Positions 16,808 to 36,777 are shown, counted from the stretch's first letter. The stretch is DNA of 50,894 nucleotides from Pseudomonadota bacterium (GCA_043825735.1 JBDRRP010000006.1:1-50894), one strand, 5' to 3'. Numbers and translations are program-made. The notes: generated by a model from the letters alone, not told the origin.

Positions 16808-16825
16808 CCCTACTTGTTCACTAAA

Positions 16826-17053
16826 TTACAATTCATCTTGGCCACCACGATTCTTGACCGACTCCGCACTCTCCGCCGCGCCGCCGGATTCAACCCAGGC
16901 ATCCACTTGGCTTTTCTTGAACTTCCAGAGGCGGCCCATGCGGTGCGCGGGCATGCCATGCTTGTCGATCCATTTGTACACGGTGTCATTGCTGACCCCG
17001 AGGTATTTGCAGATCTCGGTTATCGACAACCAGCGGTCTTCCATCTCGTTCAT
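16826..17053 (-). CDS. Excisionase-type HTH protein (MAD1-like regulator)
   Basis: MEDRWLSITEICKYLGVSNDTVYKWI...GRLWKFK; start reassigned to the ATG at 17053. Confidence 0.85.
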   Translation of the reverse strand: MNEMEDRWLSITEICKYLGVSNDTVYKWIDKHGMPAHRMGRLWKFKKSQVDAWVESGGAAESAESVKNRGGQDEL

Positions 17054-17424
17054 GCTCAAAACTCCACGGGCGTTTGGTTTGCGGCCACGTCCGCCAGAGG
17101 CGAAACGGGAGGGTGCTGGACACACCTCACCCAGAATAAAAACTTCCTTAATATACATAGGCCATTCGTACGAAGTCAAACGATCTTTGCCGATTTCGGC
17201 CGAATTTATGCGAACTCAATCGACGCCATAGGTCGTGTGCCAGCTTGACCGAACAAGCACAAGGAGTGGCCAAGATTTTTTACGACCTGAACTGACACAT
17301 CCCGCCGCCACCCGGTAAGTAAGCCCCATGGATATCAGTGAGCACGAAAAAAACCCCGACGCCCGACACTTTCTCCGTTTCTCCGTTAAGTAAGGGCATA
17401 AACCAAATCGAGGAGTGACCGACC

Positions 17425-17822: not shown

Positions 17823-18201
17823 TGTAAAAAAGTTCATAACGCAATAATTCTATTTGATAACGGCTTGCTCCCTCACCTTGATATCGATCACAGTCTATGT
17901 CAGGTTGTTATTATCCACCTCATGCTCCGATCTGAATGGAAAAACACCTTACAAGGATAACGTTGACCAGCACCACGCTTGGGGGCTTTATGAACCATTT
18001 CGATAAATTATGCGTGGAGAGCTTTGTGGCGTCAAGATGATTTAGGGTGGCAACCACTCGATAGAGGTATTGTTCTCACTGACATTGTGAGGAATACAGG
18101 CAACATTCCTTGAAAATCCCGTTCGAGGACTGTGGCAAACAGTGCTCGGTTCAGAAGGAGCCCTCATTCCTCTAAAATAGCATCCTTGGGTAGGAAGGAT
18201 T

Positions 18202-19302
18202 ATGAGAAAGATCATCTGGGTACTGGCATTGATCGTGATTGCGGGAGGAGCCTACCTTTGCTTGTGGCCTGTGCCCATAGAACCGGTGAGTTGGAAAGCC
18301 CCAGCAGCACCGTCATACACAGGCGTACATTCGGCTAACAGTCGATTGTCCGGGCTAAATATTATCTCCCTCGGCGGAGAGGAAGGCCCAGAGCACATCG
18401 TGCTGGGTCAGGATGACAAGCTTTATGCCGCCGTAGCCAGCGGCAACATCCTCAGGATGAATCCAGATGGTTCGGCTCAGGAGGTGTTCATCAATACTGG
18501 AGGCCGGGTTTTTGGCTTCGATTTCGACGGTAAAAGGAACCTTATAGCTGCTGACGCTATCAAGGGTCTCTTGTCCATAAGTCCCGGTCGAGAGATCACG
18601 GTTTTGGCTGATAAAGTCGGAGAGGACCCGATTCGCTATGCCGATGCAGTAGTTGTGGCCAGAAACGGAAAAGTCTATTTCAGTGATGCGTCGACCCGGT
18701 TTTCGCCGGCGGTATGGGGCGGCACCTTTGAGGCAAGCATCTTGGATTTACTCGAGCAATCGTCCACGGGTCGAATTCTTGAGTATGATCCTTCCCAAAA
18801 GACTACACGAGTCGTGGCACATGGGTTTAGTTTCGCCAACGGTGTGGCTCTGTCCGATGACCAAAAGACCCTGTTCGTTATCGAGAGCGGCAAGTATCGA
18901 GTATGGAAGATTGCGGTTGATGCTGACAACTTGAACGTGGCTGGCGGGTCATCCCAGGCTTCCGTTCTATTAAACAACCTGCCTGGATATCCGGATAACC
19001 TTATGCGCGGCCTGGACGGGAAAATCTGGCTGGGCTTTGTAAAGCCTCGCAGCTCGATAGTAGATTCGATGGCAGACAAACCTTTTCTACGCAAGGTCAT
19101 TTTTCGCCTGCCGCGTGTATTGTGGCCGGTGCCCAAAGCCTATGGACACGTGATTGCATTTACCGAGGACGGAAAGGTTGTGGCCGATTTGCAGGACCCG
19201 AAAGGGGCCTATCCCGAGACTACCGCAATTACTGAAACCAGTGATCGACTCTATGTACAGAGCCTTCACGCCAAAGGACTTGGCTGGATAATAAAAGACT
19301 GA
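18202..19302 (+). CDS. Strictosidine synthase-like / SMP-30-gluconolactonase family protein
   Basis: N-terminal TM segment, GPEH, YFSDAS, FANGVALS, LPGYPDN. Confidence 0.9.
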   Translation: MRKIIWVLALIVIAGGAYLCLWPVPIEPVSWKAPAAPSYTGVHSANSRLSGLNIISLGGEEGPEHIVLGQDDKLYAAVASGNILRMNPDGSAQEVFINTGGRVFGFDFDGKRNLIAADAIKGLLSISPGREITVLADKVGEDPIRYADAVVVARNGKVYFSDASTRFSPAVWGGTFEASILDLLEQSSTGRILEYDPSQKTTRVVAHGFSFANGVALSDDQKTLFVIESGKYRVWKIAVDADNLNVAGGSSQASVLLNNLPGYPDNLMRGLDGKIWLGFVKPRSSIVDSMADKPFLRKVIFRLPRVLWPVPKAYGHVIAFTEDGKVVADLQDPKGAYPETTAITETSDRLYVQSLHAKGLGWIIKD

Positions 19303-19369
19303 AAGTCGCTTGACTGACCGAGTTTAAAGCCATTGGATCAAGATTAGCCAAAGAAATGATTAGCTGATG

Positions 19370-19429
19370 AATGGCATACTCATTCCATCTGTTTCGAAAC
19401 GATTCCAGAATATTAGAGGCGTTGGCAAA
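19370..19429. repeat. Inter-cargo repeat copy A (core only)
   Basis: CATTCC at 19381, GATTCCAGAATATTA at 19401, GGCAAA at 19424. Confidence 0.85.
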
Positions 19430-19573
19430 CGTGCTCGTCTTTTGATTCGCGGTGAAAAATGCTGATATTGCGCAAATTTAAACGAGCGACAAGACAATCT
19501 GTATCAGAACAGCGCATACAATTTTTTTAATTTTGACAATTTCTGAATGCATATCGTCCAATAAAAGTGATTT

Positions 19574-21784
19574 ATGAATATATTTAAAGCGGCAAACAGG
19601 TCAACGTTTATGATCGCAATTGTCTTATACATAATTGCGCTGTTGGGCTACGTCGGTTGGAATTATTTTTATAATAAGAGGGAAATTCTAAAGAATATCG
19701 ACTCTGAATTATATAGAAGTGCAGTTGCCTTGAAGTATATTTTACCAGAAGATCTCCACGATAGAGCGGTTGACGGGCAATCTATTTCAGCTAACGAGGA
19801 TAAATACATTGCCAATAAGCTGACAAAGCTGGTCAAAGAAACAAGTCTTAAATACGCCTACACCATTATTAAACAGGGGCAAAAACTGTTTTTTGTGGCA
19901 TCGGATATTTCAGCAGACCCTGAGACCGAGAGGGGGACGTTTTATTTCTATCAATATGAGGGAGCCGATGATACTTTTATAAGTGCTTTTGAAAAAAAGG
20001 TGCCAAGTTATAAAACTGTATCAGACCAATGGGGTACTGTAAGAACTGTAATAGTGCCTGAAAAGTCACCGGGAGGCGTAAAATATCTTGCATGCGCTGA
20101 TTATGATATCACTCATATAAATAAGTTACTTCAGAAAAACTTACTGCGGTCAATAGCAACCATATTTTTCTTTTTAGCATTATATATCCCAATCATTATA
20201 GTCTATACCAAGCTTTATGGCGAATATTTGAGCTCACTTCGAAAGCGCGAGGAAAAATATAGGACTCTGACTGAATTATTGCCCATCGTTGTATTTGAGT
20301 TAGACAACCAAGGCAAAATAAAATTTGCCAACAAGTCTGGGGTCCAAATGACTGGCTATGACCAAAGTGATTTTGAAAAAGGTTTAAATATTGTAGATGT
20401 TATTGCCCCTGAAAGTCATGAAACTGCATTGAAATTGTACGATCAAGTTTTACAAGGCATTTACTCGGATGGCGCGGAGTATCAAATTCGGCGGAAAGAC
20501 GGCAGTACTTATTATGGCTACATTAATACAAGGCCAACGCTCGATAGCGATTCCCCAGGCTTGATAGGATATATTTTTGACCTGACCCGCCTCAAAGAGG
20601 CAGAATTTGCACTTCGGAAAAGTGAAGAAACGCTAATAAGGTCGAAGAAAATGGAATCTTTGGGGCTATTAGCAGGCGGTGTCGCTCACGATTTAAACAA
20701 TATTCTTTCTGGAATTGTAAGTTATCCGGAGTTGCTGTTAATGGATTTGCCCGAGGACAGCAAACTCAGGAAACCGATTGAAACAATGCAGGAGTCCGGG
20801 CATCGGGCTGCCGCTATTGTACAGGATTTATTGACCGTTGCAAGAGGCGTAGCCACTACAAAAGAACCGATAAATCTAAATGACCTTATAAACGATTATT
20901 TGAGTTCTCCGGAGCATGATAAAATAAAACAGTTTTACCCTTTAGTCTCAGTCGAGATAAACTTAGATGCCGATTTACTCAACATCAAAGCCTCTTATGT
21001 CCACATCAGAAAAATACTAATGAACTTAGTGTCAAACGCTTCAGAAGCTATTGAGGGCAGTGGTATTATTTCTGTGTCAACAATGAATCGATATATTGAT
21101 AAGCCCTTTAAGGGATATGAGAATTTTTCAGCCGGTGAATACGTTGTTCTGTCTGTAAAAGACAATGGCTCAGGAATATCTCCAGACGATCTTGAGAGAA
21201 TATTTGAGCCGTTTTTTACCAAAAAAATTATGGGCAGAAGCGGTACTGGTTTAGGCTTGGCTGTTGTATGGAATACAGTACAAGACCACAAAGGTGTTAT
21301 TGACGTGAAAAGTGATAAAAACGGTACGGTTTTTGAAATATACTTTCCGATAACGAGAGAAGAGATATCGACTAAGGATTTGTCTATGTCCATTCAAGAC
21401 TATATGGGCAATAGCGAAATGATACTTGTCGTTGATGATTTGAAAAGGCAGCGAGAAATATCGTGTAAAATGTTAACCGTTCTTGGCTACAAAACAAAAT
21501 CTGTTTCCAGCGGAGAGGATGCAATTGAATATTTGAAGGAACATTCCGTGGATTTAATATTGCTTGATATGATTATGGTTCCGGGAATAAATGGCCGCGA
21601 AACCTATGAGCGCATCGTCAAGATAAATCCTAGACAAAAGGCTATAATAACCAGTGGGTACGCTGAGACGGATGACGTAAAGGCAATTCAAAATTTAGGC
21701 GCCGGACGTTACTTGAAAAAGCCACTTACTATTGAAATATTAGGGCTGGCCGTTAAGCAGGAACTAGAGAAATTACAGCCTTGA
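19574..21784 (+). CDS. Hybrid sensor histidine kinase (TM, sensor, PAS, HisKA, HATPase, REC)
   Basis: AHDLNN, DNGSG, GTGLGL, LILLDMIM. Confidence 0.93.
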   Translation: MNIFKAANRSTFMIAIVLYIIALLGYVGWNYFYNKREILKNIDSELYRSAVALKYILPEDLHDRAVDGQSISANEDKYIANKLTKLVKETSLKYAYTIIKQGQKLFFVASDISADPETERGTFYFYQYEGADDTFISAFEKKVPSYKTVSDQWGTVRTVIVPEKSPGGVKYLACADYDITHINKLLQKNLLRSIATIFFFLALYIPIIIVYTKLYGEYLSSLRKREEKYRTLTELLPIVVFELDNQGKIKFANKSGVQMTGYDQSDFEKGLNIVDVIAPESHETALKLYDQVLQGIYSDGAEYQIRRKDGSTYYGYINTRPTLDSDSPGLIGYIFDLTRLKEAEFALRKSEETLIRSKKMESLGLLAGGVAHDLNNILSGIVSYPELLLMDLPEDSKLRKPIETMQESGHRAAAIVQDLLTVARGVATTKEPINLNDLINDYLSSPEHDKIKQFYPLVSVEINLDADLLNIKASYVHIRKILMNLVSNASEAIEGSGIISVSTMNRYIDKPFKGYENFSAGEYVVLSVKDNGSGISPDDLERIFEPFFTKKIMGRSGTGLGLAVVWNTVQDHKGVIDVKSDKNGTVFEIYFPITREEISTKDLSMSIQDYMGNSEMILVVDDLKRQREISCKMLTVLGYKTKSVSSGEDAIEYLKEHSVDLILLDMIMVPGINGRETYERIVKINPRQKAIITSGYAETDDVKAIQNLGAGRYLKKPLTIEILGLAVKQELEKLQP

Positions 21785-21842
21785 AATATACAAGAATTTT
21801 TCCCTTTTGATTAATTAGATCAAACACTTTAGGGTATAGAAA

Positions 21843-22087
21843 ACGCGTATGCTTCTTCAATCTTCCTGACAGCTGTAAGACATGGAATACCATTTTTTTT
21901 AAGGCGGGGTGTACCGAGATGGTCATCAAACGGCCATTTTGAGGCGAGATGGGTGCAGCTGGTCATCGAGGGGAAAAAGCTGACCGGCCCTACCTTGATT
22001 TTGATCTCAGGCTCTGGCAGACTGATCAATACCGGATTCATTCCAACAGTTCCTGAATGATTCCAGAATATTACCTTCGGTGGCAAA
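21843..22087. repeat. Inter-cargo repeat copy B (long form)
   Basis: Colinear with 28614-28860 over ~245 bp; core GATTCCAGAATATTA at 22059. Confidence 0.9.
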
Positions 22088-22382
22088 CTATTACGTGGTC
22101 TAAGGCATCAGAAATCCCAGGCGTCATCGGGCCTTCTTGGACATCCTCATTGCTGTTGCCAATTAGCTCATCTCTGCTAAAATGCCCGGCATAAACTCCA
22201 TTGCTCGGTTTGGTACCATTTCTTTTATGTGCCGGGTTCGTAGGATTTGACAATATCATTGGAATTGTAAAACCGGGCAATACTTTCGGATAATGCAAGA
22301 ATTGTTTAATCGACGTCGTCCCACCACACACCCTTAATTTGTATGCTGGTGGATCACAATACATATAATCTGGTTTCCAAAT

Positions 22383-24998
22383 ATGTTCAAAAAGCCGGAA
22401 TTTCTTAACTGGGAAGGCTTCTGGTGGGGATCGGAGCCGGACAGACCTGACGACCTTGAAAAATGGCGGAGCCGATTTGCAAAATCGATGCTCGCTTTCG
22501 GGGTCGTCGTTTTCCCTCTAGCGATGCTTTTCACTGTTCCCTTATTCATTTCTGAGCGAAGATACGGTCTGATCGCCGCTGACGTAGCCTTTTGGGTTTT
22601 TCTGGTGTGCCAATTGTTCATTTTCAGGTTCCCGCCCAAGACCAACAAATACGTAGCTTTGGCCGCCATTTACTTCATGACGATCCTGTTTCACATTACC
22701 TTGGGTCCTTTTGAGGTGCGTCCGGTCTGGCTTGTCACCTGCGCGGTGTTTTCAGCCATATTCCTCGGGATTCCCGGAGCGATAGCCGCAGGGCTAATCC
22801 ATATCTGCCTGCTCCCTTCCCTTTACTTACTGATGGGGCCAGCAAACCCTGCCTGGTCCGCAGTCTACGAACTCCCACCGAACAGATGGATCGTTTTCCT
22901 ATTTAACACCTGGGTTCTCGCATTAGCCAGCAGTCTGGCGGTTGGATTCCTGCTCAGCCGTCTGGATCGCGCATTGAGGGATGAGCAGCACACCTCAGCG
23001 AAAATGAGCCGACGGGGCGACGAACTGGAAAACGCCAATAAAAGACTGAAGAAGGAAATGTCCCAACGGGAGGTTGCCGAAGAAGCTCTGGTAAAAAGCG
23101 AAGAGAAATATCGACTTCTGGCCGAAAACGCCATGGATGTTATTTACACCGTGGACATGGACCTCAACCTGACATACATCAGCCCATCCGTTCTGCGGGT
23201 GCGCGGCTACACTCCTGAAGAATTGATGAATATGAAGCTGACCGACCATCTGGCCCCAAACTCCGTCGAGACCGCGGCGCAGGTCTTGGCCGAGGAGTTG
23301 GAGATCGACGCAGCCGGTAGCGCTGATCCCAAAAGGTCCCGTACGATAGAGCTCGAGGTGTTTCGCAAAGACGGCTCCACCTACTGGAGCGAGGCGAGTT
23401 TTACCTTTATCCGCAATGAAATGGGCCAGCCCATAGGCATCTTGGGCGTCAGTCGAGACATCAGCAAACGAAAGGCGGCCATAGAACGGTTGAAAACAGC
23501 CGAGGCCCGGCACCGAGCAGTTCTGGAGGCTTCGCCTGATCCTATAGTCACCTACGACATGGAGGGACGGACTACCTATGTCAATCCCGCTTTTACAAGC
23601 GTTTTCGGGTGGACGGAACAGGAGCTTTTAGGGCGCAAAATCGATTTCGTCCCTGAGGAGGAATTACCAAAGACCAGAAAGCTAATTAAAATGGTTTTGG
23701 CTGGCAGGAGCAGTTCTGGAGTTGAGACACGCAGGCGGACCAAATCCGGCAAAATCATTGAGATTAGCCTGAGTGCTGCGGTTTTCAACGATCCTGAAGG
23801 GAGGCTTCAGGGAAGCGTTGCAATTTTGCAGGACATCACTGAGAGAAAGAGATTGGAAGCCCAATTGATGCAGATACTCAAGATGGAAGCCATCGGCACC
23901 CTTGCCGGCGGAATTGCACATGATTTCAACAATCTTCTGATGGGTATCCAGGGGCGCACTTCACTATTGGATATGGAACTTGGCTCATCCCATCCTCAGA
24001 AGGAACATATCGAAGCGATAGAAGAATACGTTCAAGGTGCAACTCAATTAACCAAGCAACTTTTAGGTTTTGCACGGGGCGGAAAATACGAGACCAAGCC
24101 AATAGATATGAATACAATTTTGGTGGCTTCCGCTGAAATGTTCGGGCGTACCCATAAAGAAATTCAAATTCACAAGAAACTAGAAGTCGGGCCATTGGTG
24201 GTAGTGGCGGACAGGGGACAGATCGAGCAGGTACTGCTGAACATTTTTATCAATGCATGGCAAGCAATGCCTGTCGGTGGCCACATCTACGTCGAGACTG
24301 CATTAGTTAGCTTCAACGAGCCTGATAGCGAAATGCAACAAATAGAACCAGGGCTATATGTGAAGACCTCTATCACAGACACGGGTGTCGGCATGGACGA
24401 GGCGACCCAACAGCGGATATTCGACCCATTTTTCACCACCAAAGAAAAGGGGCGTGGTACGGGTCTCGGTCTGGCTTCTGCTTACGGCATCATTAGAAAT
24501 CATCATGGAAAAATTACAACCAACAGCGAAGTCGGCCACGGAAGCACCTTTAACATTTATTTGCCTGCCTCGGATAGCAGGGCAGAAATAGTAGACACGG
24601 AGGAAAGTGTTCCGGTTCAAGGGTCGGAGACTATCTTGTTGGTGGATGACGAAAAAATGATACAGGAAGTTGGGTGCGCAATGCTGGAAAAACTCGGGTA
24701 CCGAGTCTTTGTCGCCACTAACGGTCAGGAAGCCATAGAAATTGTGGTTAATCAAGGTAATTCCATCAATTTAGTAATTCTTGATCTAATTATGCCGGGT
24801 ATCGACGGAGGCAAGGCTTTTGAGAAGATTCGCAGGATTAATCCAACGATTCCGATCATACTATCCAGCGGATATGCAATCAACGGTCAGGCAACTGAAA
24901 TAATGAACCAAGGATGTGACGGTTTTCTGCAAAAGCCGTTTAAAATTTTCGAATTATCCAAGAAGATACGTCTAATTTTAGATACGAGCAATGTGTAA
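22383..24998 (+). CDS. Hybrid sensor histidine kinase (multi-TM, 2 PAS, HisKA, HATPase, REC)
   Basis: AHDFNNLL, DTGVGM, GTGLGL, LVILDLIMP. Confidence 0.93.
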   Translation: MFKKPEFLNWEGFWWGSEPDRPDDLEKWRSRFAKSMLAFGVVVFPLAMLFTVPLFISERRYGLIAADVAFWVFLVCQLFIFRFPPKTNKYVALAAIYFMTILFHITLGPFEVRPVWLVTCAVFSAIFLGIPGAIAAGLIHICLLPSLYLLMGPANPAWSAVYELPPNRWIVFLFNTWVLALASSLAVGFLLSRLDRALRDEQHTSAKMSRRGDELENANKRLKKEMSQREVAEEALVKSEEKYRLLAENAMDVIYTVDMDLNLTYISPSVLRVRGYTPEELMNMKLTDHLAPNSVETAAQVLAEELEIDAAGSADPKRSRTIELEVFRKDGSTYWSEASFTFIRNEMGQPIGILGVSRDISKRKAAIERLKTAEARHRAVLEASPDPIVTYDMEGRTTYVNPAFTSVFGWTEQELLGRKIDFVPEEELPKTRKLIKMVLAGRSSSGVETRRRTKSGKIIEISLSAAVFNDPEGRLQGSVAILQDITERKRLEAQLMQILKMEAIGTLAGGIAHDFNNLLMGIQGRTSLLDMELGSSHPQKEHIEAIEEYVQGATQLTKQLLGFARGGKYETKPIDMNTILVASAEMFGRTHKEIQIHKKLEVGPLVVVADRGQIEQVLLNIFINAWQAMPVGGHIYVETALVSFNEPDSEMQQIEPGLYVKTSITDTGVGMDEATQQRIFDPFFTTKEKGRGTGLGLASAYGIIRNHHGKITTNSEVGHGSTFNIYLPASDSRAEIVDTEESVPVQGSETILLVDDEKMIQEVGCAMLEKLGYRVFVATNGQEAIEIVVNQGNSINLVILDLIMPGIDGGKAFEKIRRINPTIPIILSSGYAINGQATEIMNQGCDGFLQKPFKIFELSKKIRLILDTSNV

Positions 24999-25100
24999 TG
25001 ATCCGACTTAGTGAAGCCAGCTACATCATCCTTTAAATTACCAGAGTTCCAATTGACCAATAGGGCTTAGATCGTTGTTATTCCTAAAGTTGAAAACTAA

Positions 25101-25162
25101 AGACTGGCATACTCATTCTGTCGGTTTTTTAACGATTCCAGAATATTACCTTTGGTGGCAAA
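25101..25162. repeat. Inter-cargo repeat copy C (core only)
   Basis: TGGCATACTCATTC, GATTCCAGAATATTACC at 25134, GGTGGCAAA. Confidence 0.85.
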
Positions 25163-25382
25163 TAGTCCGCGGTTATGAGCTCGCGGCAGTTCAGTGAAAT
25201 ATGGGTGCCTCTATTCGCTAATTTTGATATCAAGAAGATATCTCTGTGCTGACCTGAATTGTAATGTTGAGAATAAAACTTTGCGCAATAGCTGTGACAG
25301 CTACGGTCACACCCAAGGGTCACTTGAGACATCTGCATAACCCAGTAAAAGAATATTCACATAGAACCCCCAAAAAGTTGAG

Positions 25383-28300
25383 GTGGACATGCCGTATAGC
25401 AATTTGAGCGGATCCAATCTATGCCGAATTAGACGTGGCTTCATCCCATCATTTCTATTTCTAATCTACTTCCTTGCATTCTTGATGGGCTGCAAAACTG
25501 TAAATATGTCAGTCGAGGAGGCCAAGAATGTTGCTGTCGAGTTTCAGGGGACGTACAAGACCGTGCCCCCGAGGGGCTTGGGAGTGACGATCGAAAAGCA
25601 GGTAGCGTACTACAAAGACCCACCGAACTTACCCGCTGAATATCTGGTGCCGCGAAAGCAGTACACGGATGATGAACTCAATGACGTGTATAAAGGCGTT
25701 AGCGGAGCACCGGATTGGGCGGAACCGAGATACTATGCCACGTGGGCTTATAATGAATATATGTTGGGCAACCTCAGCCTTTCAATCCGGTTAGTAGATC
25801 TGGTGCCCCCCAAATCTGTTTATGTTTTAAATAACATGGAAGGTTTTGCATTCAAAGCCTTGATCCTGGCAGAGGCCGGTGACTACAAAGGGGCCGAGTC
25901 AGCGTTTTCTTCAGCAGATTACTTTTATAGCAAATATAGGCGGGTAAGTGGAGATCGTGGCATTCTCGCCAGAATACTGCTGGCGACGGCATTCATGACT
26001 CGTTCCAGGGCTGCAATTTATTTTTCCCGCGGAGATTTGGCGGCGGCAGAGCAGGAGTATCGGCAGCTTTTGCTTGACCTTGATAGATTCCGGCACAGTG
26101 GCGCTTTGGCTGAGCCCACGAATCACGAACCCGAAGCCCTGGTAAACCTTGCCCGGGTTCTACTGGCCCAGGGGCGCCTAACGGAGGCAGAGATCAATGT
26201 GCGCGAGGCTATTCGGCTGGGAAACACCAATTGCATGCCGCATGCTTTCCTTGCCTTGAGCAAAATTTTTTTTGCGCAGGGGCGCTTTGAAGATGCCCGG
26301 GTATGCGCCCGTACGGCTTTGCATATCACGATGACTCTGCGGGTGCCCATTGACGCTTTTATTCGGGCCAATGTCCGTGCAGATTATGCGCGCGCACTTT
26401 TAGCCCTGGGGCAGTACAAGGAATCTCTGCAGCAGTTTAACCTGATAAAAGAAGAGTTAAAGACCGATCCTGCGACCTTTGACCGCCGGTTCAAGGGGAA
26501 TGCGGAGTGGGGCCTGGCGCTGTTGATGAACGGTGATGCCCAGGCGGCCATGGAACAACTGGAGTTCGCTGCCCGGCAAAGTGAAAATATTTTGGGTACC
26601 GATACCTATGCCCTGGCCGAACTGCGTGCCTTGCACGCCATGGCGCTGGCCCAGTCCGGGCAACCAGATGCTGCGCTGAAAGCGTTTGACCAATACGTCC
26701 CCGCGCTTCTTAAAAAATGGGAAACCAATGAAGAGGGTATTAACTCTCAAAATGCCCGGTCCTTCAAGTTCAAATTGATATTGGAAGCCTACATTACGCT
26801 CCTTGCCGACAGCGGACAGCCCGCAGACGCCGAAAGAAGCTTTCAATATGCCAGCGCTTTGCAGGACAAGCTGATCGGCCGAGCGGTGGCCCTGAACTCG
26901 GCCCGAACCGCGGTGAAGGATCTCGCTCTCACCGACCTGATCCGGCAACAACAGGATCTGGAAATGAAACTTTCCTCCTCTAAAAACCGGCTTGCCAACG
27001 CCCTCTATGCGCCCCCTGAGCTGATAAATACCGAGGTTATTACAGAGCTGCGCAACCAGGTAGAGACCCTCAACCTCGCTACGGGAACCCTCGAACAAGA
27101 AATCAAGAGCCTTTTTCCCGAGTATGCAAATATCGTCAACCCGGATAATGCCGATGTGGCCAAAGTCCGCAATACGCTGGATGACACCGAGGCCCTGATC
27201 TCCATCTTTTCCGGCAAAAACGCGACGTTCATCTGGGCCATTCCGAAGACCGGCCCGGTGTCCTTGGCCAAGGCCCCGATTGGAAAAGCCAAAATGGCCG
27301 GCTTGGTGGGTAAATTGAGAAAGGCCCTTGATCCCGGCGCGGTGTTCAGTATCATGGAATTGCCGCCATTTGATTTAAAGCTTGCATACAGTCTTTATGA
27401 GCAAACATTAAAGCCGGTTGAAGCCGGCTGGAAACAGGCCAAGAACCTGATCGTGGTCATCCAGGGACCGATGGGACAAATTCCGCTTTCCATCCTTCCG
27501 ACCACGTCAGATTTTCAGACCGATCGCGTCCCAGGCAAGCCGGTCTTTTCTAACTACAGCGATGTGAAGTGGCTGATCAATACCCACTCGGTTACGGTCT
27601 TGCCGTCGGTTTCCGCCCTGGTCAACCTGCGATCCGTTGTTCCCGAAGAAACAGAGCGGGCCGCCTATGTCGGTTTTGGTGATCCCTATTTCAACCAGGA
27701 ACAGCTGGCCGCGGCTGAAAATGAGGCCAAGCAGAAGGAGGCGCTGCTTGCCATGCGCAATGCCCCCATCCAACTGCGCGGCATTCGTGTTACACAAGCC
27801 GGTGAGCTCGATAAAAAGAAAATCGCCTCCATCGGTATCGGTATGCTCAACCGCCTGCCGGATACCCGTGAGGAGGTCATCAACATTGCCGCTACCTTGA
27901 AGGCGGATACTGAAAAAGATGTTTTCTTTGGAAAGCAGGCCAGTGAACAGACCATTAAATCCCTGGATCTCAGCAACCGCAGGGTGGTGGTCTTTGCCAC
28001 CCACGGCCTGGTGCCCGGCGACCTGGACGGGCTCGATCAACCAGCCCTGGCTTTGAGTGCCCCGGATGTCACTGGCAATGCCGACGAGGACGGCCTGTTG
28101 ACCATGGGCGAGATCATGGGGCTGCGTCTGAATGCCGACTGGGTAGTCCTATCGGCCTGTAACACCGGGGCGGCCGAAGGCGAAGGCGCCGAAGCGGTGT
28201 CGGGACTGGGGCAGGCCTTCTTCTACGCGGGTGCCCGCGCCCTTCTGGTGACCGGTTGGCCGGTAGAAACGATCAGCGCCAAGCTTTTGACCACCGATCT

Positions 28301-28457
28301 GTTCAAAAGGCAGCTGGACAACCCGGGTATCAATCGAGCGGAGGCACTGCGGTTGACCATGAATGCCATGATTTCGAAAACCCATGAAGAGGGGTTTTCT
28401 TATGCCCATCCTATTTTTTGGGCGCCCTATGCCATTGTAGGTGATAGTCGCCGTTAG
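25383..28457 (+). CDS. TPR + CHAT (caspase-like) protease, probable lipoprotein
   Basis: Hydrophobic stretch ending LMGC; TPR-like helices; FATHG and LSACNTG dyad; HPIFWAPY. Confidence 0.9.
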   Translation: MDMPYSNLSGSNLCRIRRGFIPSFLFLIYFLAFLMGCKTVNMSVEEAKNVAVEFQGTYKTVPPRGLGVTIEKQVAYYKDPPNLPAEYLVPRKQYTDDELNDVYKGVSGAPDWAEPRYYATWAYNEYMLGNLSLSIRLVDLVPPKSVYVLNNMEGFAFKALILAEAGDYKGAESAFSSADYFYSKYRRVSGDRGILARILLATAFMTRSRAAIYFSRGDLAAAEQEYRQLLLDLDRFRHSGALAEPTNHEPEALVNLARVLLAQGRLTEAEINVREAIRLGNTNCMPHAFLALSKIFFAQGRFEDARVCARTALHITMTLRVPIDAFIRANVRADYARALLALGQYKESLQQFNLIKEELKTDPATFDRRFKGNAEWGLALLMNGDAQAAMEQLEFAARQSENILGTDTYALAELRALHAMALAQSGQPDAALKAFDQYVPALLKKWETNEEGINSQNARSFKFKLILEAYITLLADSGQPADAERSFQYASALQDKLIGRAVALNSARTAVKDLALTDLIRQQQDLEMKLSSSKNRLANALYAPPELINTEVITELRNQVETLNLATGTLEQEIKSLFPEYANIVNPDNADVAKVRNTLDDTEALISIFSGKNATFIWAIPKTGPVSLAKAPIGKAKMAGLVGKLRKALDPGAVFSIMELPPFDLKLAYSLYEQTLKPVEAGWKQAKNLIVVIQGPMGQIPLSILPTTSDFQTDRVPGKPVFSNYSDVKWLINTHSVTVLPSVSALVNLRSVVPEETERAAYVGFGDPYFNQEQLAAAENEAKQKEALLAMRNAPIQLRGIRVTQAGELDKKKIASIGIGMLNRLPDTREEVINIAATLKADTEKDVFFGKQASEQTIKSLDLSNRRVVVFATHGLVPGDLDGLDQPALALSAPDVTGNADEDGLLTMGEIMGLRLNADWVVLSACNTGAAEGEGAEAVSGLGQAFFYAGARALLVTGWPVETISAKLLTTDLFKRQLDNPGINRAEALRLTMNAMISKTHEEGFSYAHPIFWAPYAIVGDSRR

Positions 28458-28613
28458 TGTTTCATTGTGAAGCCTTCTATAATGCATGTTTCCTTTGGCA
28501 AGGAAGACTTTCGCATTTAATTATATGGCCAATAAAGCAGAACTGAACTCAAACTACGACCATCATTCCTTCGGTTAGAGAACCCAAATATCCTGTTTCG
28601 ACTTACCACCCCA

Positions 28614-28860
28614 TACGCCTATGCCTCTACAATATTCCTGGCAGATGAAAACTGTGGAATGCCATTTCTAAGGCGGGGTGCACCTACCGAGATAGTCACC
28701 AAACGGCCATTTTGAGGCGATATGGGTTGCGGAATGGCCACCGGAGGGCTGGCTGAGCGGCCATACCTTGATTTGGATCTCGCGCTGTGGCAGACTGAGC
28801 AATACCAGTATCATTCCGACGGTTTATAAGTGATTCCGGAATATTATCGTCGGTGGCAAA
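28614..28860. repeat. Inter-cargo repeat copy D (long form)
   Basis: Colinear with copy B; core GATTCCGGAATATTA at 28832. Confidence 0.9.
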
Positions 28861-29075
28861 CATTCTGTGGTTCAAACCTAACTCAATCTGCGGATCTTTT
28901 ATGAATAAATTATTTTAGGTTTCTGTACTTTTTGTCACAATTTTAGGAAAATACCTATCCAAATCTCTGCCTGTCTCTATGGAATCCATCACTTAAACCC
29001 GCACCACTAAGGCATTCTATTACCTTCCGGATTATTGCATGATTCTTGCTTACATCATCACTCAATTTCAGGAAA

Positions 29076-29172
29076 CAAGACAAAGCCAAACCGCCCGTGA
29101 GGGAGGGACGGAAAGCCATGGATCTCTCAGGGGCGAGGGCCCCAGATCCGAGAGACAGCCGGGTTGGCTACA
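29076..29172 (+). ncRNA. c-di-GMP-I (GEMM-I) riboswitch
   Basis: GCCAAACC, P2 with GTGA tetraloop, GGGACGGAAAGCC...GAGACAGCCGGGTTG; lies in the 5' UTR of the PEP-CTERM gene. Confidence 0.85.
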
Positions 29173-29238
29173 GTGACGCGGTTCGGACTTTTTTTACTTC
29201 CAATACATGCAATCCAAATTTCCAAATAGGAGTGGATT

Positions 29239-30057
29239 ATGAAAAGAGTATTTGGCATTTTATGCATTCTTTTGTTATCATTCAGTTTTTCAAGAACAGC
29301 TGGGGCTGACCCAGTTAACTTGAATACGTGGACAGCAGAGTCTTATCCAGCGGTATCTGGCTTTCCGGCAGGATCATGGTCCGTGTCTGCTGATGGGAGT
29401 ACGGTTACCCAAACAAATAATGGCCAGCCAACTTTTTTCTACAGTGATTTCGATGCTTTCGGAACGCTTGCACAGGGTAAAATATTAGTAACCGGCACCG
29501 ATGATGATTATATTGGTTTTGCATTGGGGTTCCAACCCAATGACTCTTCAAACGCAGCGGCTGACTACCTATTGATCGATTGGAAAAGCGCAACTCAGAA
29601 CTATAATTTCACCGGGACACCCGTAAGCACCCCTGGCAGTACAGCATACGCGGGGCTTGCTGTATCGAGAGTAACAGGGATACCCACGGCGGATGAGTTT
29701 TGGGGACATAAAAACTTTATTGAAAATCCAGGAGGTGGGCTCCAAGAACTCCAGAGAGCAAACACCTTGGGTGCTACTGGGTGGGGCCTGGACACTCAAT
29801 ACGAATTTCGCTTTGATTTTGGTCCGAATGACTTGGAAGTATTTGTAAACGACGTTCTCGAACTTGATATTGCTGGCGTATTTTCAGATGGGCGCCTTGC
29901 GTTTTACAACTTCTCCCAAGCCGGCGTAACTTATTCTGCTTTCACGCTTGATGATGGAAATTTTCCTAATCCTGTCCCTGAACCCGCAACTTTGCTTCTT
30001 CTCGGTACCGGTCTTGTAGGGCTTGCCGGGGCACGGCGTAAACTTAACAAAAAGTAA
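29239..30057 (+). CDS. PEP-CTERM exosortase substrate with thrombospondin C-terminal-like domain
   Basis: Signal peptide; DDDYIGFALGFQ; C-terminal VPEPATLLLLGTGLVGLAGARRK. Confidence 0.88.
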   Translation: MKRVFGILCILLLSFSFSRTAGADPVNLNTWTAESYPAVSGFPAGSWSVSADGSTVTQTNNGQPTFFYSDFDAFGTLAQGKILVTGTDDDYIGFALGFQPNDSSNAAADYLLIDWKSATQNYNFTGTPVSTPGSTAYAGLAVSRVTGIPTADEFWGHKNFIENPGGGLQELQRANTLGATGWGLDTQYEFRFDFGPNDLEVFVNDVLELDIAGVFSDGRLAFYNFSQAGVTYSAFTLDDGNFPNPVPEPATLLLLGTGLVGLAGARRKLNKK

Positions 30058-30078
30058 CCGACTCTCCATATCCAAAGC

Positions 30079-30112
30079 AAAAAAAGGCGGAGTTATTTGC
30101 TCCGCCTTTTTT
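30079..30112 (+). terminator. Intrinsic terminator
   Basis: AAAAAAGGCGGAG-loop-CTCCGCCTTTTTT. Confidence 0.85.
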
Positions 30113-30129
30113 GTTATCACACCGTGATC

Positions 30130-30218
30130 TACGCCTATGCCCCTTCAATATTCCTGACACCTGAAAACCGAGCAATACCATTTCAAAGCCGGGGCCGGGA
30201 TCATCCCTTCCCCGGCTT
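30130..30218. repeat. Inter-cargo repeat copy E (left part plus hairpin)
   Basis: TACGCCTATGCCCCTTCAATATTCCTGAC matches the left end of B/D. The GCCGGGG...CCCTTCCCCGG hairpin is shared with 31042. Confidence 0.75.
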
Positions 30219-30593
30219 CATGTTTTATCCGTAGATGGTTTCAACCCACCGGATGGCCTCTTTGTCGCACAGGAATGTTCTGCGGGCAAAAATACCTTCG
30301 ATCAATTTATCCTTGCCGATTATACAATCGACCGTTTAACAGGGAATTGTTAATTCCGACTGTTTAAGTTGCATTTCACTAACCAATGTCTTAGTTTTAG
30401 AATCAGCATTACGCCTCCCCAGTGGATAGGGGGGAGGCTACTCACCTCAAATTCCTTCCCTAAGCATAGAAGCATTTTATCCGCTTATCAGCAGTGGCTA
30501 TAGATGGGATGCTGACTTAGTCCTATGGAAACCATGTAGCCATTGTTAGATCACTTTATCCATCACAACCACAAATTCAGAGAGGAGCACTCG

Positions 30594-30980
30594 ATGAAGA
30601 TAGCCAAGGATGACATACCAGTCAAAATTAACGCACCGGGTGCGGTGGCACGACAAAAGACGAATTTCGGCGACGCGACCGGATATGGGAGGATTAGCGG
30701 TGAATACTTTTCTCTCGGCGCCGGTGCGGACATCTCGCCATTACTTGTGGGGTTGGAAGGAGATCTTTGCCAAAGTCCACACTGGGGTTATCTTCTGCAG
30801 GGGGGACTTACCGTTACCTACGCAGATGGCAACCAAGAAATGGTAAGCGGCGGCGACCTGTTTTACTGGCCGCCCGGTCACACGGTCAAAGTCGGCCAAG
30901 ATGCCGAGGTCATTTTGTTCAGCCCGCAGGACGAGCATAGTAAGGTCATCAATCACATGCTGGGAAAGATGGGCACCTAA
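30594..30980 (+). CDS. Cupin domain protein
   Basis: CQSPHWGYLLQG...GDLFYWPPGH; RBS GAGGAG before the ATG at 30594. Confidence 0.85.
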   Translation: MKIAKDDIPVKINAPGAVARQKTNFGDATGYGRISGEYFSLGAGADISPLLVGLEGDLCQSPHWGYLLQGGLTVTYADGNQEMVSGGDLFYWPPGHTVKVGQDAEVILFSPQDEHSKVINHMLGKMGT

Positions 30981-31035
30981 AAGGTGCCAATCTGCAAAAT
31001 CCATGTGATTTCGGGATATTGGTAGGATCGGCAAA

Positions 31036-31279
31036 TTCTAAGCCGGGGCGGGGCATCCCTTCCCCGGTTTTTTCGTATAATTAGAAGGCGACTCCCAGCC
31101 GCCGGCCGGCGACCTATAAGGGCTCTCTGTGGGGGAACGATGGCAAACCAAAAACAGACTATGGGGCCGTTTAGGTAGGTCCCACCTTGATATTAATCTA
31201 AGGCTCTGGAAGACTGAGTAATACCTGACTCATTCCAACAGTTTTTAAATGATTCCAGAATATTACATTCGGTTGCATA
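31036..31279. repeat. Inter-cargo repeat copy F
   Basis: Hairpin as in copy E; ACCTTGAT...AGACTGAGTAATACC; CATTCC at 31231; GATTCCAGAATATTAC at 31251. Confidence 0.85.
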
Positions 31280-31282
31280 GTC

Positions 31283-31375
31283 CTCGGTCACAAAGATGTC
31301 AAATCGACGATGATCTATGCCCATGCCTTCAATCGTGGGTCATCCGGCGTACGGAATCCTGTGGACGGTCTTTGA
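31283..31375 (+). pseudogene. intI: 3'-terminal fragment of an integron integrase
   Basis: Translates to LGHKDVKSTMIYAHAFNRGSSGVRNPVDGL*, matching the IntI C-terminus LGHxDVxTTMIYTHVLNRGxxGVxSPLD. Confidence 0.8.
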
Positions 31376-31573
31376 GAGGCGTCTTATAACGACCCGCATA
31401 ACACGCCGATCTAAATTGACCGACCAATAAAAATGCTTTGAGTCACAAGGGGTTAAGTCAATTTCTGTAGAGTTTCTGAAGGTGCCTTATACGGACAGAA
31501 ACGAAAAATTCCGCATCTTATGCGGGTCCATCTATTTATTGTTAGGCCATAGAAGTACAGAGAGGAGAGCACG

Positions 31574-31918
31574 ATGAGCAACAAACAGGTGGCACCTGAG
31601 ACCAAAGGGATTACGGTGAAGTTGCTTGCAACTATGGACCTTGGCCTTGAGATTGAGGGCATGGTAGGACGCCAATTCCGAATGCGCATGTTCACCTTCG
31701 AACCCGGAGCCGTCTTCGGCCCGATTCACGACCATAAAGACAGACCGGGCATTGTCTATATACTACAAGGAACGATCACTGACCATCGAGATGGAGTCGC
31801 GACGGACTATGGGCCGGGGGTAGGCTGGCCCGAGGACCGGAACACGACACACTGGCTTGAGAACAGAGGAACGGTTCCTGCGGTGGAGATTTCGGTCGAC
31901 ATAGTTAGGCAAGAATAA
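31574..31918 (+). CDS. Cupin domain protein (probable integron cassette gene)
   Basis: HDHKDRPGIVYILQG...THWLEN; RBS GAGGAG; followed by an attC. Confidence 0.85.
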   Translation: MSNKQVAPETKGITVKLLATMDLGLEIEGMVGRQFRMRMFTFEPGAVFGPIHDHKDRPGIVYILQGTITDHRDGVATDYGPGVGWPEDRNTTHWLENRGTVPAVEISVDIVRQE

Positions 31919-31946
31919 GTTCAGGCCCAACATTAAACACGGTTGC

Positions 31947-32020
31947 GCCTAACAAGGCAAATTAACTCGGATGCAAATTCCGCTGCGCTCCATTTGCACC
32001 GGTAATTTGCAACGTTACAA
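31947..32020 (+). other. attC site
   Basis: R'' GCCTAAC, inner complementary pairs GCAAATTA/TAATTTGC and TGCAAAT/ATTTGCA, R' GTTACAA; 74 bp. Confidence 0.75.
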
Positions 32021-32074
32021 ACCGTGCATTCCGCCTATCATTGGTCTATGCCGGTCGATGCGCTTCAATAGACC

Positions 32075-32096
32075 AATATCTGACTCATTCCAACGG
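32075..32096. repeat. Inter-cargo repeat copy G (partial)
   Basis: AATATCTGACTCATTCCAAC, 19/20 identical to 31220-31239. Confidence 0.7.
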
Positions 32097-32212
32097 TGCA
32101 CAGTTTTGTGTGCATCCTGCCCAAATTCCGGTGCATCGCACCGGGTAACATACATGTCCATCCACCCCGCGATAATTGAAAATCGAGGTGCTCGAAATAT
32201 GCTTTGATTCCT

Positions 32213-32336: not shown

Positions 32337-33443
32337 TCACTTAGCAACCATCCCTGACTTCCGGAATCTTTCAATTATAGCATCGGCGATTTCTGTGGCG
32401 CCCGTTTGTTGGGTAGGGGCTGGTTTTGACAGACCATGAATAATCTCCCCCTGGCGTGCGCAAGATACCTCGCCGTAGCTTAGAAAGGTGGTCAACACCT
32501 TTTCATGTCCCAGGTTCTGGCTCCAGGCCTTGAACTGTTCAGGCGTCCTGCAGACCTTCTGACCGAGTTGAACAAGGGTATTTCGAAAACTGTGAGGGTT
32601 GAAATACGGCAGCCCGGCGCAGGCAAAAGCTTCTCGGAACATTGTTCGGATGGGCGTGGCGTTGCTCCAGTGAACCCTTTTCAATCCCGCGGCCTCGAAC
32701 TGGCGCGTAGCTCCCTGGCAGATTAATGTGGCCGGAAACAGCGGGTCATCATTGCCCCACAGTTTTTCATCCCGAAGATAGGACACCCAGTCGGAGAATA
32801 TTTCGAGCGGTTCGTCACCCACGGGGAAAAAATATGTCACAAAGGTCTTGCTGAACTTCGTTTCAACCTCCCGCGCATCCTGGTGAACGCATCCGGCGGC
32901 CAGGTTGACATGCTTGAGCTTCAGCGAGGCGATGGCGCGGTCCCTGGCTCCGGACAAAAGGGTGAATGCCATCAAAGCACGATTTCGGCACTCGATCTCG
33001 GTGCCGGCCGGCATCGTGCTGATCACATGCCTGATCTGCTCCGGGGTGGGGACCTGTTGTTGCCGTTTTGCAGTGGCGATCCGGGTGTCCTTGTCCGACA
33101 AGTTGAAATATTCGGCATCCGAATACTGAAACCGTGACTTGTAGCCCGGCTGCCATGCCAGCCACTGGAAAAACCGCTTGAGCTGTGTGAGGGTCGCATG
33201 CAGGGTCGCCTTGCTGAGCTTTTTTCCTGACCGCTGGCCCCTTTGCTCGGCAAGATGTTTCTTGAAGGCCACGGCCTGCTGGAAATGAAAGGCCTTGAAA
33301 TCTCGATACCGGGTATATGCCTCAAAGCGGCTAAGGGCCTTCGCGGCCGCATCGACTGTTGGCTCGCTGTGGCGCTTGGCCTCCTTCAGGAAGGCGAAGT
33401 ATTTGCGCTTGATGCGCTCATTGGTCGGGTTGTGTTTTTTCAT
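32337..33443 (-). CDS. Tyrosine recombinase/integrase
   Basis: SGARD (R), TKFSK, HSFR, LGHE and FLSY catalytic set. Confidence 0.92.
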   Translation of the reverse strand: MKKHNPTNERIKRKYFAFLKEAKRHSEPTVDAAAKALSRFEAYTRYRDFKAFHFQQAVAFKKHLAEQRGQRSGKKLSKATLHATLTQLKRFFQWLAWQPGYKSRFQYSDAEYFNLSDKDTRIATAKRQQQVPTPEQIRHVISTMPAGTEIECRNRALMAFTLLSGARDRAIASLKLKHVNLAAGCVHQDAREVETKFSKTFVTYFFPVGDEPLEIFSDWVSYLRDEKLWGNDDPLFPATLICQGATRQFEAAGLKRVHWSNATPIRTMFREAFACAGLPYFNPHSFRNTLVQLGQKVCRTPEQFKAWSQNLGHEKVLTTFLSYGEVSCARQGEIIHGLSKPAPTQQTGATEIADAIIERFRKSGMVAK

Positions 33444-33928
33444 GGTCGGATATCCCCTTTGTTGAAGTCACTGTTTACGGTAGGGTTGACCCTATCAATT
33501 ATGTGTCGCAGTGCTTCCGGGAAGCTGATGTCTATTTTCCCAAGGATTTGATCTATTTTATCCAGACTGACGTGTCGGTTCATGATGACATCGCAGTCGG
33601 GGCAAATTGCAACGAGATTGCCGATTTTATCGGTGATAGCGACATAATCCGCCATGTCGCCGGCCGGCCTTTTAGGCGCGCGGCAGCGCACGCAGTACAG
33701 CTCCCCCGGTTTGCACTTCTGTTTGTTCTTAGTTCGGCGGGCTTTCAGAAAGTCCACTATGACGAGACCGAGAATGAGCATGGGGCGCTTGTCGTCGACA
33801 GTGGCGAGTCCACCCTTTACCCAGTGACGCACGGTGTTTTTGTGGACGCCGAACAGCGTGGCGATCTCCTCCACTGTGTAGCTACGGTGGATTTTAACCA
33901 GACGGTGGTTGGGTTGACGTCTTTTCAT
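33440..33928 (-). CDS. Excisionase-type HTH protein with Cys4 Zn-ribbon
   Basis: YTVEEIATLFGVHKNTVRHW; CVRC...CPDC. Confidence 0.8.
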   Translation of the reverse strand: MKRRQPNHRLVKIHRSYTVEEIATLFGVHKNTVRHWVKGGLATVDDKRPMLILGLVIVDFLKARRTKNKQKCKPGELYCVRCRAPKRPAGDMADYVAITDKIGNLVAICPDCDVIMNRHVSLDKIDQILGKIDISFPEALRHIIDRVNPTVNSDFNKGDIRP

Positions 33929-33931
33929 TGC

Positions 33932-36523: not shown

Positions 36524-36777
36524 AACTGCGCCCATCGCATGGCATTCTTTCTAGTTGCTTCCAGCGTTGACACCAACTCGCGGATTTCATCATCTGACTT
36601 GCCGGCGATGCGTGCCGCATTGAGAGTCTCCACCTCATTGGATGGCCAGCCGACCGCCCGCGCGCCAAGTGGCACAGGTCTTGTCCAAAGTCCTTGCTCA
36701 ATCCGCAGGTAGATGGTGGAGCGTGAAAGGCCAGATTCTCGCTTTACGTCGGGCATTCTAAGAATAGTGCGCTTCAT
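36520..36777 (-). CDS. alpA: AlpA family phage regulatory protein
   Basis: ILRMPDVKRESGLSRSTIYLRI...PVPLGARAVGW; RBS GGAGG. Confidence 0.9.
   Translation of the reverse strand: MKRTILRMPDVKRESGLSRSTIYLRIEQGLWTRPVPLGARAVGWPSNEVETLNAARIAGKSDDEIRELVSTLEATRKNAMRWAQL

Follow-up and report, generated by a model that had tools for sequence, protein, structure and literature searches.

What separates seven unrelated single genes, and may have brought them together, in a 50,894-nt stretch of DNA from Pseudomonadota bacterium (GCA_043825735.1 JBDRRP010000006.1:1-50894)? We refer to this whole stretch as the window. A first-pass annotation made from the sequence alone had described its central part (18202–32100) as an array of foreign genes, each followed by a full or partial copy of one repeat family, and had proposed serial one-ended capture of DNA at an integron-like platform. 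We conclude with high confidence that the repeat is the junction, consisting of a left end (LE) and a right end (RE), of an element of ~1.15 kb whose sole gene encodes a small Xer-like tyrosine recombinase. In the window, eight or more such junctions, all in one orientation, are stacked in alternation with seven horizontally acquired single-gene segments. Our favored explanation for the origin of this stack, to which we give about even weight, is that site-specific recombination at the junctions added one gene plus one junction per event and that the recombinase acted in trans.

Repeat copies and the recombinase element

A repeat search of the window recovered a 66-nt core in five gapless copies (at 19364, 22022, 25097, 28795, and 31214) that are 71–77% identical to the reference and have identical CATTCY-N14-GATTC spacing, and longer repeat families that join 21842/28614/30130 and 21979/28752/31171. 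We scored the window with an nhmmer profile built from the long copies, and all assigned copies lie on the + strand. Two matches are full gene-less junctions, LE plus RE, at 21833..22100 (268 nt, E 7e-77) and 28606..28871 (266 nt, E 1.6e-77), with 78% identity (E 9e-51). Short RE units are present at 19364..19431 (model 189–256, E 1e-14) and 25096..25173 (model 188–265, E 3.5e-16), and a further RE copy, copy F, at 31034..31285 (model 61–262, E 6.7e-28). The match at 30129..30269 (model 10–113, E 5e-24) is an LE copy plus the last ~45 nt of the element recombinase gene, a 3'-end remnant on the minus strand (~30198–30250) that was recognized by alignment with contigs C80 and C112 of the host genome. 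A degenerate, interrupted eighth copy, of RE, precedes the first gene (17871..18153, +), where nhmmer matched 17871–17907 (model 155–191, E 0.015) and 18080–18149 (E 3.2) and where repeat families D5 and D7 also fall (D7 at 18132–18153). The five cores with their constant internal spacing and the two long forms (~267 bp) are where the first-pass annotation had placed them, and the abrupt right boundary that it described was recovered ~11 nt past GGCAAAC, at ...CGGTC. Its two partial forms fared differently: that at 30130 is the LE copy just described, whereas that at 32075 matched the profile weakly (32071–32098, E 0.036) and was assigned to a different but related family ("copy G," 32028..32119, +) that starts at a GCCTAT junction. 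An Rfam search of the window gave no match on the repeats.

The identity of the repeat follows from C80 and C112 of the host assembly (G000; 6.8 Mb in 160 contigs). On both contigs LE and RE flank an intact open reading frame (ORF) for a ~270-aa Xer-like tyrosine recombinase on the opposite strand, with ~0.8–0.9 kb between the ends and a terminator-like hairpin after the ORF, and the two units have 1110 bp in common at 88% identity. Because LE and RE flank the gene there, the long forms of the window are LE plus RE minus the gene. One internal join is common to copies B and D of the window, C112:79814-80078, and metagenome locus L220. The remaining copies mostly consist of RE alone; among them, the short class of ~78 nt (model 188/195 to 266) keeps an identical left edge at seven or more sites. 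Thus, the repeat does form the ends of a mobile element, although the first-pass annotation had stated that it does not represent insertion sequence (IS) ends. The recombinase consists of the core-binding (CB) and catalytic (CAT) domains only (PF00589 at 1.9e-22). Its best NCBIfam model is XerA_Arch at 115 bits, under the cut-off of 220; it matches a tyrosine-type DNA invertase model weakly (E 1.8e-4) and scores 41.8 bits against the integron-integrase model TIGR02249, for which the cut-off is 265. The gene reads opposite to the cargo strand, and an intact copy of it lies inside none of the stacked junctions of the window. A minus-strand reading frame within the repeat that looked codon-like (F-A-T-x-G-N-I-L-E-S-F) had raised the possibility of a protein-gene relic; this candidate was dropped because none of the copies is overlapped by an intact gene and because the stretch corresponds to the region 5' of the recombinase gene.

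Alignment of 29 RE copies from the window and other sources revealed a common layout, GGAAT-N9-ATTCC-N15-ATTCC·GGAAT followed by N8-GGCAAAC-AnTnnnCGGTC, after which similarity stops, and the interval between CATTCY and GATTC is N14 in all 19 of the copies that have both motifs. LE carries ATTCC ... GGAAT as well. Judged by the alignment, the repeated ATTCC/GGAAT half-sites, the invariant N14, and the discrete short RE class are what a recombination site would be expected to have. Structures predicted for 95-nt RE copies are weak and vary between copies (-4.7 to -16.7 kcal/mol), with no common hairpin, unlike attC. A second fixed junction, ...GCCTAT, is located at the outer edge of LE. GCCTAT also ends a ~70-nt RE-like module, block X, which in the window abuts the next LE (28553..28622, +; E 1.2e-17) and which has five clear copies in the genome and one in G018, a genome from another family. 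What follows GCCTAT differs by copy, being LE in the window (28623 onward), the "copy G" family on C15, and in G018 the sequence that follows RE in C80 and at window position 18141. Such alternative continuations suggest that GCCTAT behaves as a recombination joint, and block X-GCCTAT-LE at 28553–28680 looks like an attP-type joint.

Homologs of the element recombinase are encoded in 82 of the 401 sampled genomes of the order (E<=1e-40, 48–70% identity), with up to six copies per genome, many of which are truncated, contain stops, or lie at contig ends. A large protein collection holds 4164 clusters of the family at E<=1e-30 under generic names such as "integrase/recombinase XerD," and the longest contigs of many clusters are ~1.1–1.2 kb, matching the unit in size. 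Of 29 loci in other genomes (L068–L096), 25 have, as does the C80 gene (L023, G000:C80, 966–1790), an ATG preceded by a ribosome-binding site that is out of frame with the recombinase body; the two frames converge at a run of 6–10 A residues ~18 codons in, and in the 25 loci the ATG frame ends 21–54 codons in. Three loci without the A run have a single in-frame ORF of 278 aa, and one locus gave no start; naturally in-frame members occur at L088, L089, and L091. The reading frames point to probable recoding of the tyrosine recombinase at the A run, by programmed slippage or +1 frameshifting. Control of the enzyme by a slippery run is typical of insertion sequences.

The LE/RE profile gave no match beside the 29 homologs from other genomes, the ends of which are related only through short motifs; read by eye, these hold throughout the order, with ...GAATATTA-N8-TGGCAAG at the right end, followed by divergence, and ...CTATGA-N8-CAAnAT at the left end. 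Scanning 185,579 species genomes for the right-end motif gave 54 loci, of which only L124, L140, and L150, all from Desulfobacterales, are real and the rest are chance matches; among 100 loci found on metagenome contigs, eight were matched by the repeat profile, six of them clearly. Co-oriented copies of the element lie 8.6–11.7 kb apart in three other genomes, one of which also has stray LE-only and RE-only pieces (L099). Full-text literature searches, which covered neither subscription journals nor ISfinder, returned no published description of this recombinase family; passages from PMC8138268 contain none, and a term search of PMC3711429 found no mention of integrase or recombinase. Even under a cautious reading, the element encodes a tyrosine recombinase alone and yet resembles an insertion sequence, combines this with control by a poly-A slip, and is very abundant, as its 4164 clusters attest, although it has so far carried generic names only.

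Cargo genes and the repeat in other contexts

The seven genes of the stack are all on the + strand and are mutually unrelated by Pfam. They encode a strictosidine-synthase-like/SGL protein (cargo 1, 18202..19302; SSL_N, Str_synth, and SGL; GC 0.52), a PAS hybrid histidine kinase (cargo 2, 19574..21784; GC 0.39), a MASE11-PAS hybrid histidine kinase (cargo 3, 22383..24998), a TPR-CHAT protein (cargo 4, 25383..28457; CHAT at 1.9e-48), a TSP_C-like PEP-CTERM protein (cargo 5, 29239..30057; GC at third codon positions [GC3] 0.40), a small cupin (cargo 6, 30543..30980), and another cupin (cargo 7, 31574..31918; Cupin_2 at 3.3e-10). Cargo 5 has a c-di-GMP-I-like riboswitch leader (29076..29172, +) that matches Rfam RF03167 (c-di-GMP-I-GGC) at 52 bits (E 7.6e-10), below the gathering score of 59, and cargo 6 occupies the position that the recombinase gene has in intact elements. 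The cargo genes have GC contents of 0.39–0.54, compared with a genome value of 0.575, and the shifts coincide with the repeats; the GC content of cargo 2 corresponds to approximately the 1st percentile of 2-kb windows of the genome. The distance from the end of a cargo gene to the next repeat is 49–110 nt. The earlier description of seven unrelated genes on one strand that differ in composition is borne out by these data.

The iterated repeat profile yielded 24 matches on 12 contigs of the host genome, and the window is therefore not one single platform. Scattering in random orientation had been named beforehand as a pattern that would refute the capture proposal; scattering is what we observed, but orientation relative to genes is not random. 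With genes called by a crude ORF rule, a co-oriented ORF is found 73–380 nt downstream of 17 of 17 RE copies, including all 12 of those outside the window. Genes downstream of these 17 copies have a mean GC3 of 0.52 compared with a genome median of 0.70, and seven of them fall under the 5th percentile. They are accessory genes, encoding hybrid kinases, HD-GYP, MCP-PAS, CheB/R-PAS, and Crp proteins, two TPR-CHAT proteins, and an ankyrin-caspase, in addition to a CAP12 TIR protein, an HNH protein, a B12-binding protein, and a DDE transposase. The ankyrin-caspase gene on C92 (513 aa, GC3 0.38) lies with its RE in a 2.4-kb segment specific to G000, and the genes that border this segment adjoin each other in G001, with synteny clear over ~20 kb.

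The same layout recurs with different cargo. G018 contains an array composed of LE with a recombinase remnant, an MFS gene, a short junction, an FkbM gene, RE, a PAS sensor gene, and block X, and metagenome contig L232 carries RE, a gene for a 193-aa protein that leaves 49 and 57 nt free between RE and the short RE that follows, and then a fragment of an integron-integrase gene (intI). In the host genome, a co-oriented RE is located just upstream of three of the five clear copies of block X, and such an RE-gene-block X frame encloses two CHAT genes whose products are 38% identical to each other. The proposal that the repeats frame foreign single genes in one orientation is supported.

Assembly of the stack

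If the stack grew by recombination at its junctions, the mobile unit would be a circle of one junction, either full or a short RE of ~78 nt, plus one gene, and it would recombine with a junction already in place. Crossover would take place at the fixed boundaries or close to them, immediately past ...GGCAAAC-N7-CGGTC on the right side and at ...GCCTAT on the left side, and cargo would travel with its junction, so that every event would add one gene and one junction in the same orientation. Redundant recombinase genes would have decayed afterwards, and residual activity, if any, would be supplied in trans from the C80 and C112 copies, the expression of which would require a slip on a run of seven A residues. 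Neither the one-ended capture nor the single fixed platform of the first-pass annotation is borne out, and no cassette was found in two contexts; cargo mobility is therefore not directly shown.

Several further observations weigh against recombinational growth. Loci of cargo homologs in G001 and G018 lack the repeat. No circle or inversion joint was present in the assembled Logan contigs of three public runs, one of them a possible source of this DNA, although such contigs can miss minority forms; the single joint that skips part of the array (28576 to 30141) has 24 letters on its shorter side, is out of repeat register, and is not evidence. Many repeat copies are solitary; for three such short REs, the 8 kb upstream contain no further copy. 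A true empty site was not recovered, as G001 carries a different gene at the C92 spot, which is thus a replaced site, and DNA searches of a same-genus genome with three solitary loci returned other repeat copies or partial gene matches only. No target-site duplication was found at the flanks of full copies, and no core sequence common to both boundaries could be defined in this genome. Partial copies are truncated at differing points, and the recombinase remnants of the window and of G018 break at different residues, so that these ends look like products of decay rather than of precise recombination. The four full gene-less junctions have one internal join in common, which fits a non-autonomous element that was amplified alone. 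Finally, the downstream-gene counts depend on the crude ORF rule, orientation is less strongly biased in other genomes (17 of 25), and the elements of other genomes are 8–12 kb apart with multi-gene, mixed-strand content between them.

These points lead to the main rival, an unlikely but serious one, in which gene-less junctions and RE fragments, as non-autonomous derivatives of the recombinase element, inserted singly into AT-rich intergenic DNA of an already mosaic island, in the manner of miniature inverted-repeat transposable elements (MITEs), and the cargo never moved. The spread of 24 matches over 12 contigs with many solitary copies, the absence of cargo in two contexts, the missing partners of the solitary short REs, and the heterogeneous truncations are all as it would have them, and the internal join that the four full junctions have in common could result from amplification of one deletion derivative. 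Repeats are generally located in low-GC regions, including their upstream genes (mean GC3 0.58), which a preference for AT-rich targets would explain. The element has what is expected of an IS with MITEs: a multi-copy unit that breaks assemblies and has conserved ends and an enzyme gene, gene-less derivatives with one internal deletion in common, and a slippery A run that controls the enzyme. However, single insertion needs an extra rule to explain eight copies in consecutive intergenic gaps in one orientation, the 17 of 17 copies co-oriented with the downstream gene, and the GC change-points at the repeats. Nor does it account for the RE-gene-block X frames, which surround unrelated or only distantly related genes and involve three of the five clear copies of block X in this genome, or for the compact one-gene unit of L232, and no target-site duplication was seen. 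Unlike an IS, moreover, the element encodes a tyrosine recombinase (PF00589) and not a DDE, HUH, or serine transposase, and its orientation is strongly tied to the downstream gene.

That same tie could reflect regulation instead. We consider it improbable that RE controls the downstream gene as a mobile promoter, an operator, or a switch that inverts, with binding at the ATTCCGGAAT dyad and dispersal together with the recombinase gene's control region. Such a role would account for the position of 17 of 17 RE copies 73–380 nt 5' of a co-oriented gene, and 20 of 29 copies contain a near-palindromic dyad (ATTC-NN-GAAT); RE flanks the recombinase gene on its 5' side and has a promoter-like site on the minus strand (22086–22057), both LE and RE carry inverted half-sites, and the weak resemblance of the recombinase to DNA invertases points the same way. 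Nevertheless, no inverted case occurs among the 29 aligned RE copies, each of which is collinear with its outer flanks, no strand-switch joints occur in the contigs (which can miss minority forms), and most copies could not invert because they have only one of the two ends. Promoter-like matches on the + strand are not conserved among copies. A sigma-54-like GG-N10-GC at the tip of RE, considered by inspection, was rejected, as it fits some copies only and fails in other genomes.

Copy F raises the further question of whether the array derives from an integron. The first-pass annotation had noted that the bases right of the core in this copy start in the middle of a foreign gene, intI. A C-terminal integron-integrase-like fragment is indeed present at 31280..31372 (+; TIGR02249 positions 285–315, E 1.7e-6); it comprises the last 31 codons of such a gene, joined to RE at ...CTCGGTC/AC, at the L-G-H codons, and the genome's own IntI proteins match it by tblastn at E 1e-5 to 1e-6. 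The fragment is followed by a conserved block of ~170 nt (31376..31548, +; fold z -1.87) that ends in GTTAGGC. The composite of RE, intI fragment, and block recurs, however, at G001:C68:5689-6079 and G001:C15:59511-59817, with 73–75% identity, and on L232, with the block ending in GTTAGGC, GTTCGGT, or GTTATGG. Therefore, it is an old, propagated junction and not a fresh capture. The composite may be the relic of an integron whose interrupted intI pointed in the direction of the cassettes, together with a candidate attI remnant.

Extending this to the whole array, so that it would be a decayed integron or a cluster of attC sites lacking an integron integrase (CALIN) and the repeat an unusual attC or attI of the broken intI at 31280–31372, is in our judgment very improbable. 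Besides the fragment and the block ending in GTTAGGC within the array, its appeal is that the genome encodes two bona fide IntI proteins (G000:C139:144574-145509, +, 415.9 bits; G000:C64:825-1757, -, 393.8 bits), both above the curated cut-off, and has further intI fragments on C40, C93, and C36. Yet no array of the repeat lies beside the two full genes, next to which a direct-repeat search revealed no obvious attC-type families either. The repeat profile matched neither gene even at E<=100 (200 shuffled controls reach at most 3.3 bits), and derivation of the repeat from intI was rejected, as tblastn of IntI against 11 repeat copies matched the known fragment only, all others having E > 0.19. 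RE lacks a conserved hairpin, inspection of the alignment reveals no GTTRRRY at the boundary, and the recombinase scores well under the integron-integrase cut-off; on these grounds the earlier statement that the repeats are not attC is supported.

Integrons have an IntI-clade integrase with a specific insertion, and their attC sites form imperfect hairpins with R''/R' cores (RYYYAAC ... GTTRRRY) at the 3' ends of cassettes. The array in the window is somewhat like an integron or CALIN in working: co-oriented single-gene units lie between repeated recombination-type sites, the cargo is accessory and compositionally foreign, and the recombinase gene diverges from the cargo in intact units. It nevertheless falls outside that class, as the enzyme is a plain Xer-like protein and the array holds only a 31-residue piece of intI; the site is 78–268 nt long with ATTCC/GGAAT boxes, has no attC-type hairpin by fold energy, and is bounded by GGCAAAC-N7-CGGTC. 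In addition, the recombinase gene is nested inside the repeat and multi-copy, whereas an integron has one gene at the end of the array, and cargo genes here keep their own leaders of 50–370 nt, one of them riboswitch-like, and copies are also singly scattered.

Two other kinds of system invite comparison. Streptococcal integrative and conjugative elements (ICEs) and cis-mobilizable elements (CIMEs), as well as tandem islands at tRNA and tmRNA genes, accrete at att sites as units of 10–100 kb, including integrase-less elements that are mobilized in cis. The stack is similar in having tandem units between repeated, putatively att-type sequences, most of which units lack a recombinase and would rely on one in trans or cis, and growth would likewise proceed by repeated integration beside a resident copy. 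Its units, however, are single genes of 1–3.7 kb without a tRNA or tmRNA anchor, and its conserved module is an IS-like unit of ~1.15 kb found in 82 of 401 genomes. In pdif modules of Acinetobacter plasmids, host XerC/D acts at 28-bp sites of alternating orientation. Small gene modules bounded by sites for an Xer-type recombinase are common to both, but the sites studied here are 68–268 nt long, all direct, and accompanied by a dedicated recombinase gene.

Recombination at the junctions remains the explanation that we favor for the window. A broader proposal, which is doubtful, is that this is a second, integron-independent gene-cassette system that is widespread in sulfate-reducing Desulfobacterales. 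Its cassettes would be accessory genes with their own leaders, its site the short RE of ~78 nt or the block X variant, and its enzyme the A-run-recoded Xer-like recombinase nested in the junction, which would excise and insert at the RE boundary, so that arrays and solitary RE-gene inserts would arise from one reaction. If junctions do recombine, an environmentally important order would possess a compact system, with its own enzyme, to stack and shuffle single accessory genes, among them those for sensor kinases, CHAT and caspase proteases, and TIR and HNH proteins, and a plain Xer-like enzyme would act on a site unlike attC.

Flanking genes and other observations

The first-pass annotation had linked the array to the tyrosine recombinase gene next to it (Int, 32337..33443, -). 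Such an enzyme does accompany the repeat, but Int is not the cognate one: it has only weak Pfam and NCBIfam matches, with TIGR02249 not listed in the NCBIfam scan, it lacks significant similarity to the element recombinase (blastp E 1.0), it matches only itself in the genome, and it is absent from the other repeat loci. No tRNA or tmRNA gene was found within the window, and the suggested check for repeat copies near ssrA is inapplicable here. An excisionase-like helix-turn-helix (HTH) ORF beside Int and a gene for an 867-aa protein with no Pfam or NCBIfam match make up the right flank (33440–36535), and the left flank (14453–17179) contains a type I restriction HsdR gene and an HTH_17 excisionase-like ORF. 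The array may sit inside a larger island.

The "copy G" family is represented in the window at 32032–32119, which has 93% identity with C80:6233-6320, and is also found on C115, C4, C69, and C90; it has AATAYCTGACTCATTCCA in common with RE. In two of the runs contig depth rises ~tenfold or more at 32028–32119, so that this family is common in the community. Co-oriented junction modules also form loose clusters among sensor-kinase, PAS, and HD-GYP genes at G000:C112:66447-81235 and G000:C90:58776-67077; on C90, for example, 2.4 kb separate an RE at 64500 from the LE that lies downstream of it at 67011. Several small PAS or membrane proteins encoded near repeats (L003 1879–2646, L023 5283–6086, and L024 5238–5972) have in common a Cys-rich C-terminus, LLPICxxCKKIRDDxGYWNQIESYI, which looks like a zinc-ribbon output module.

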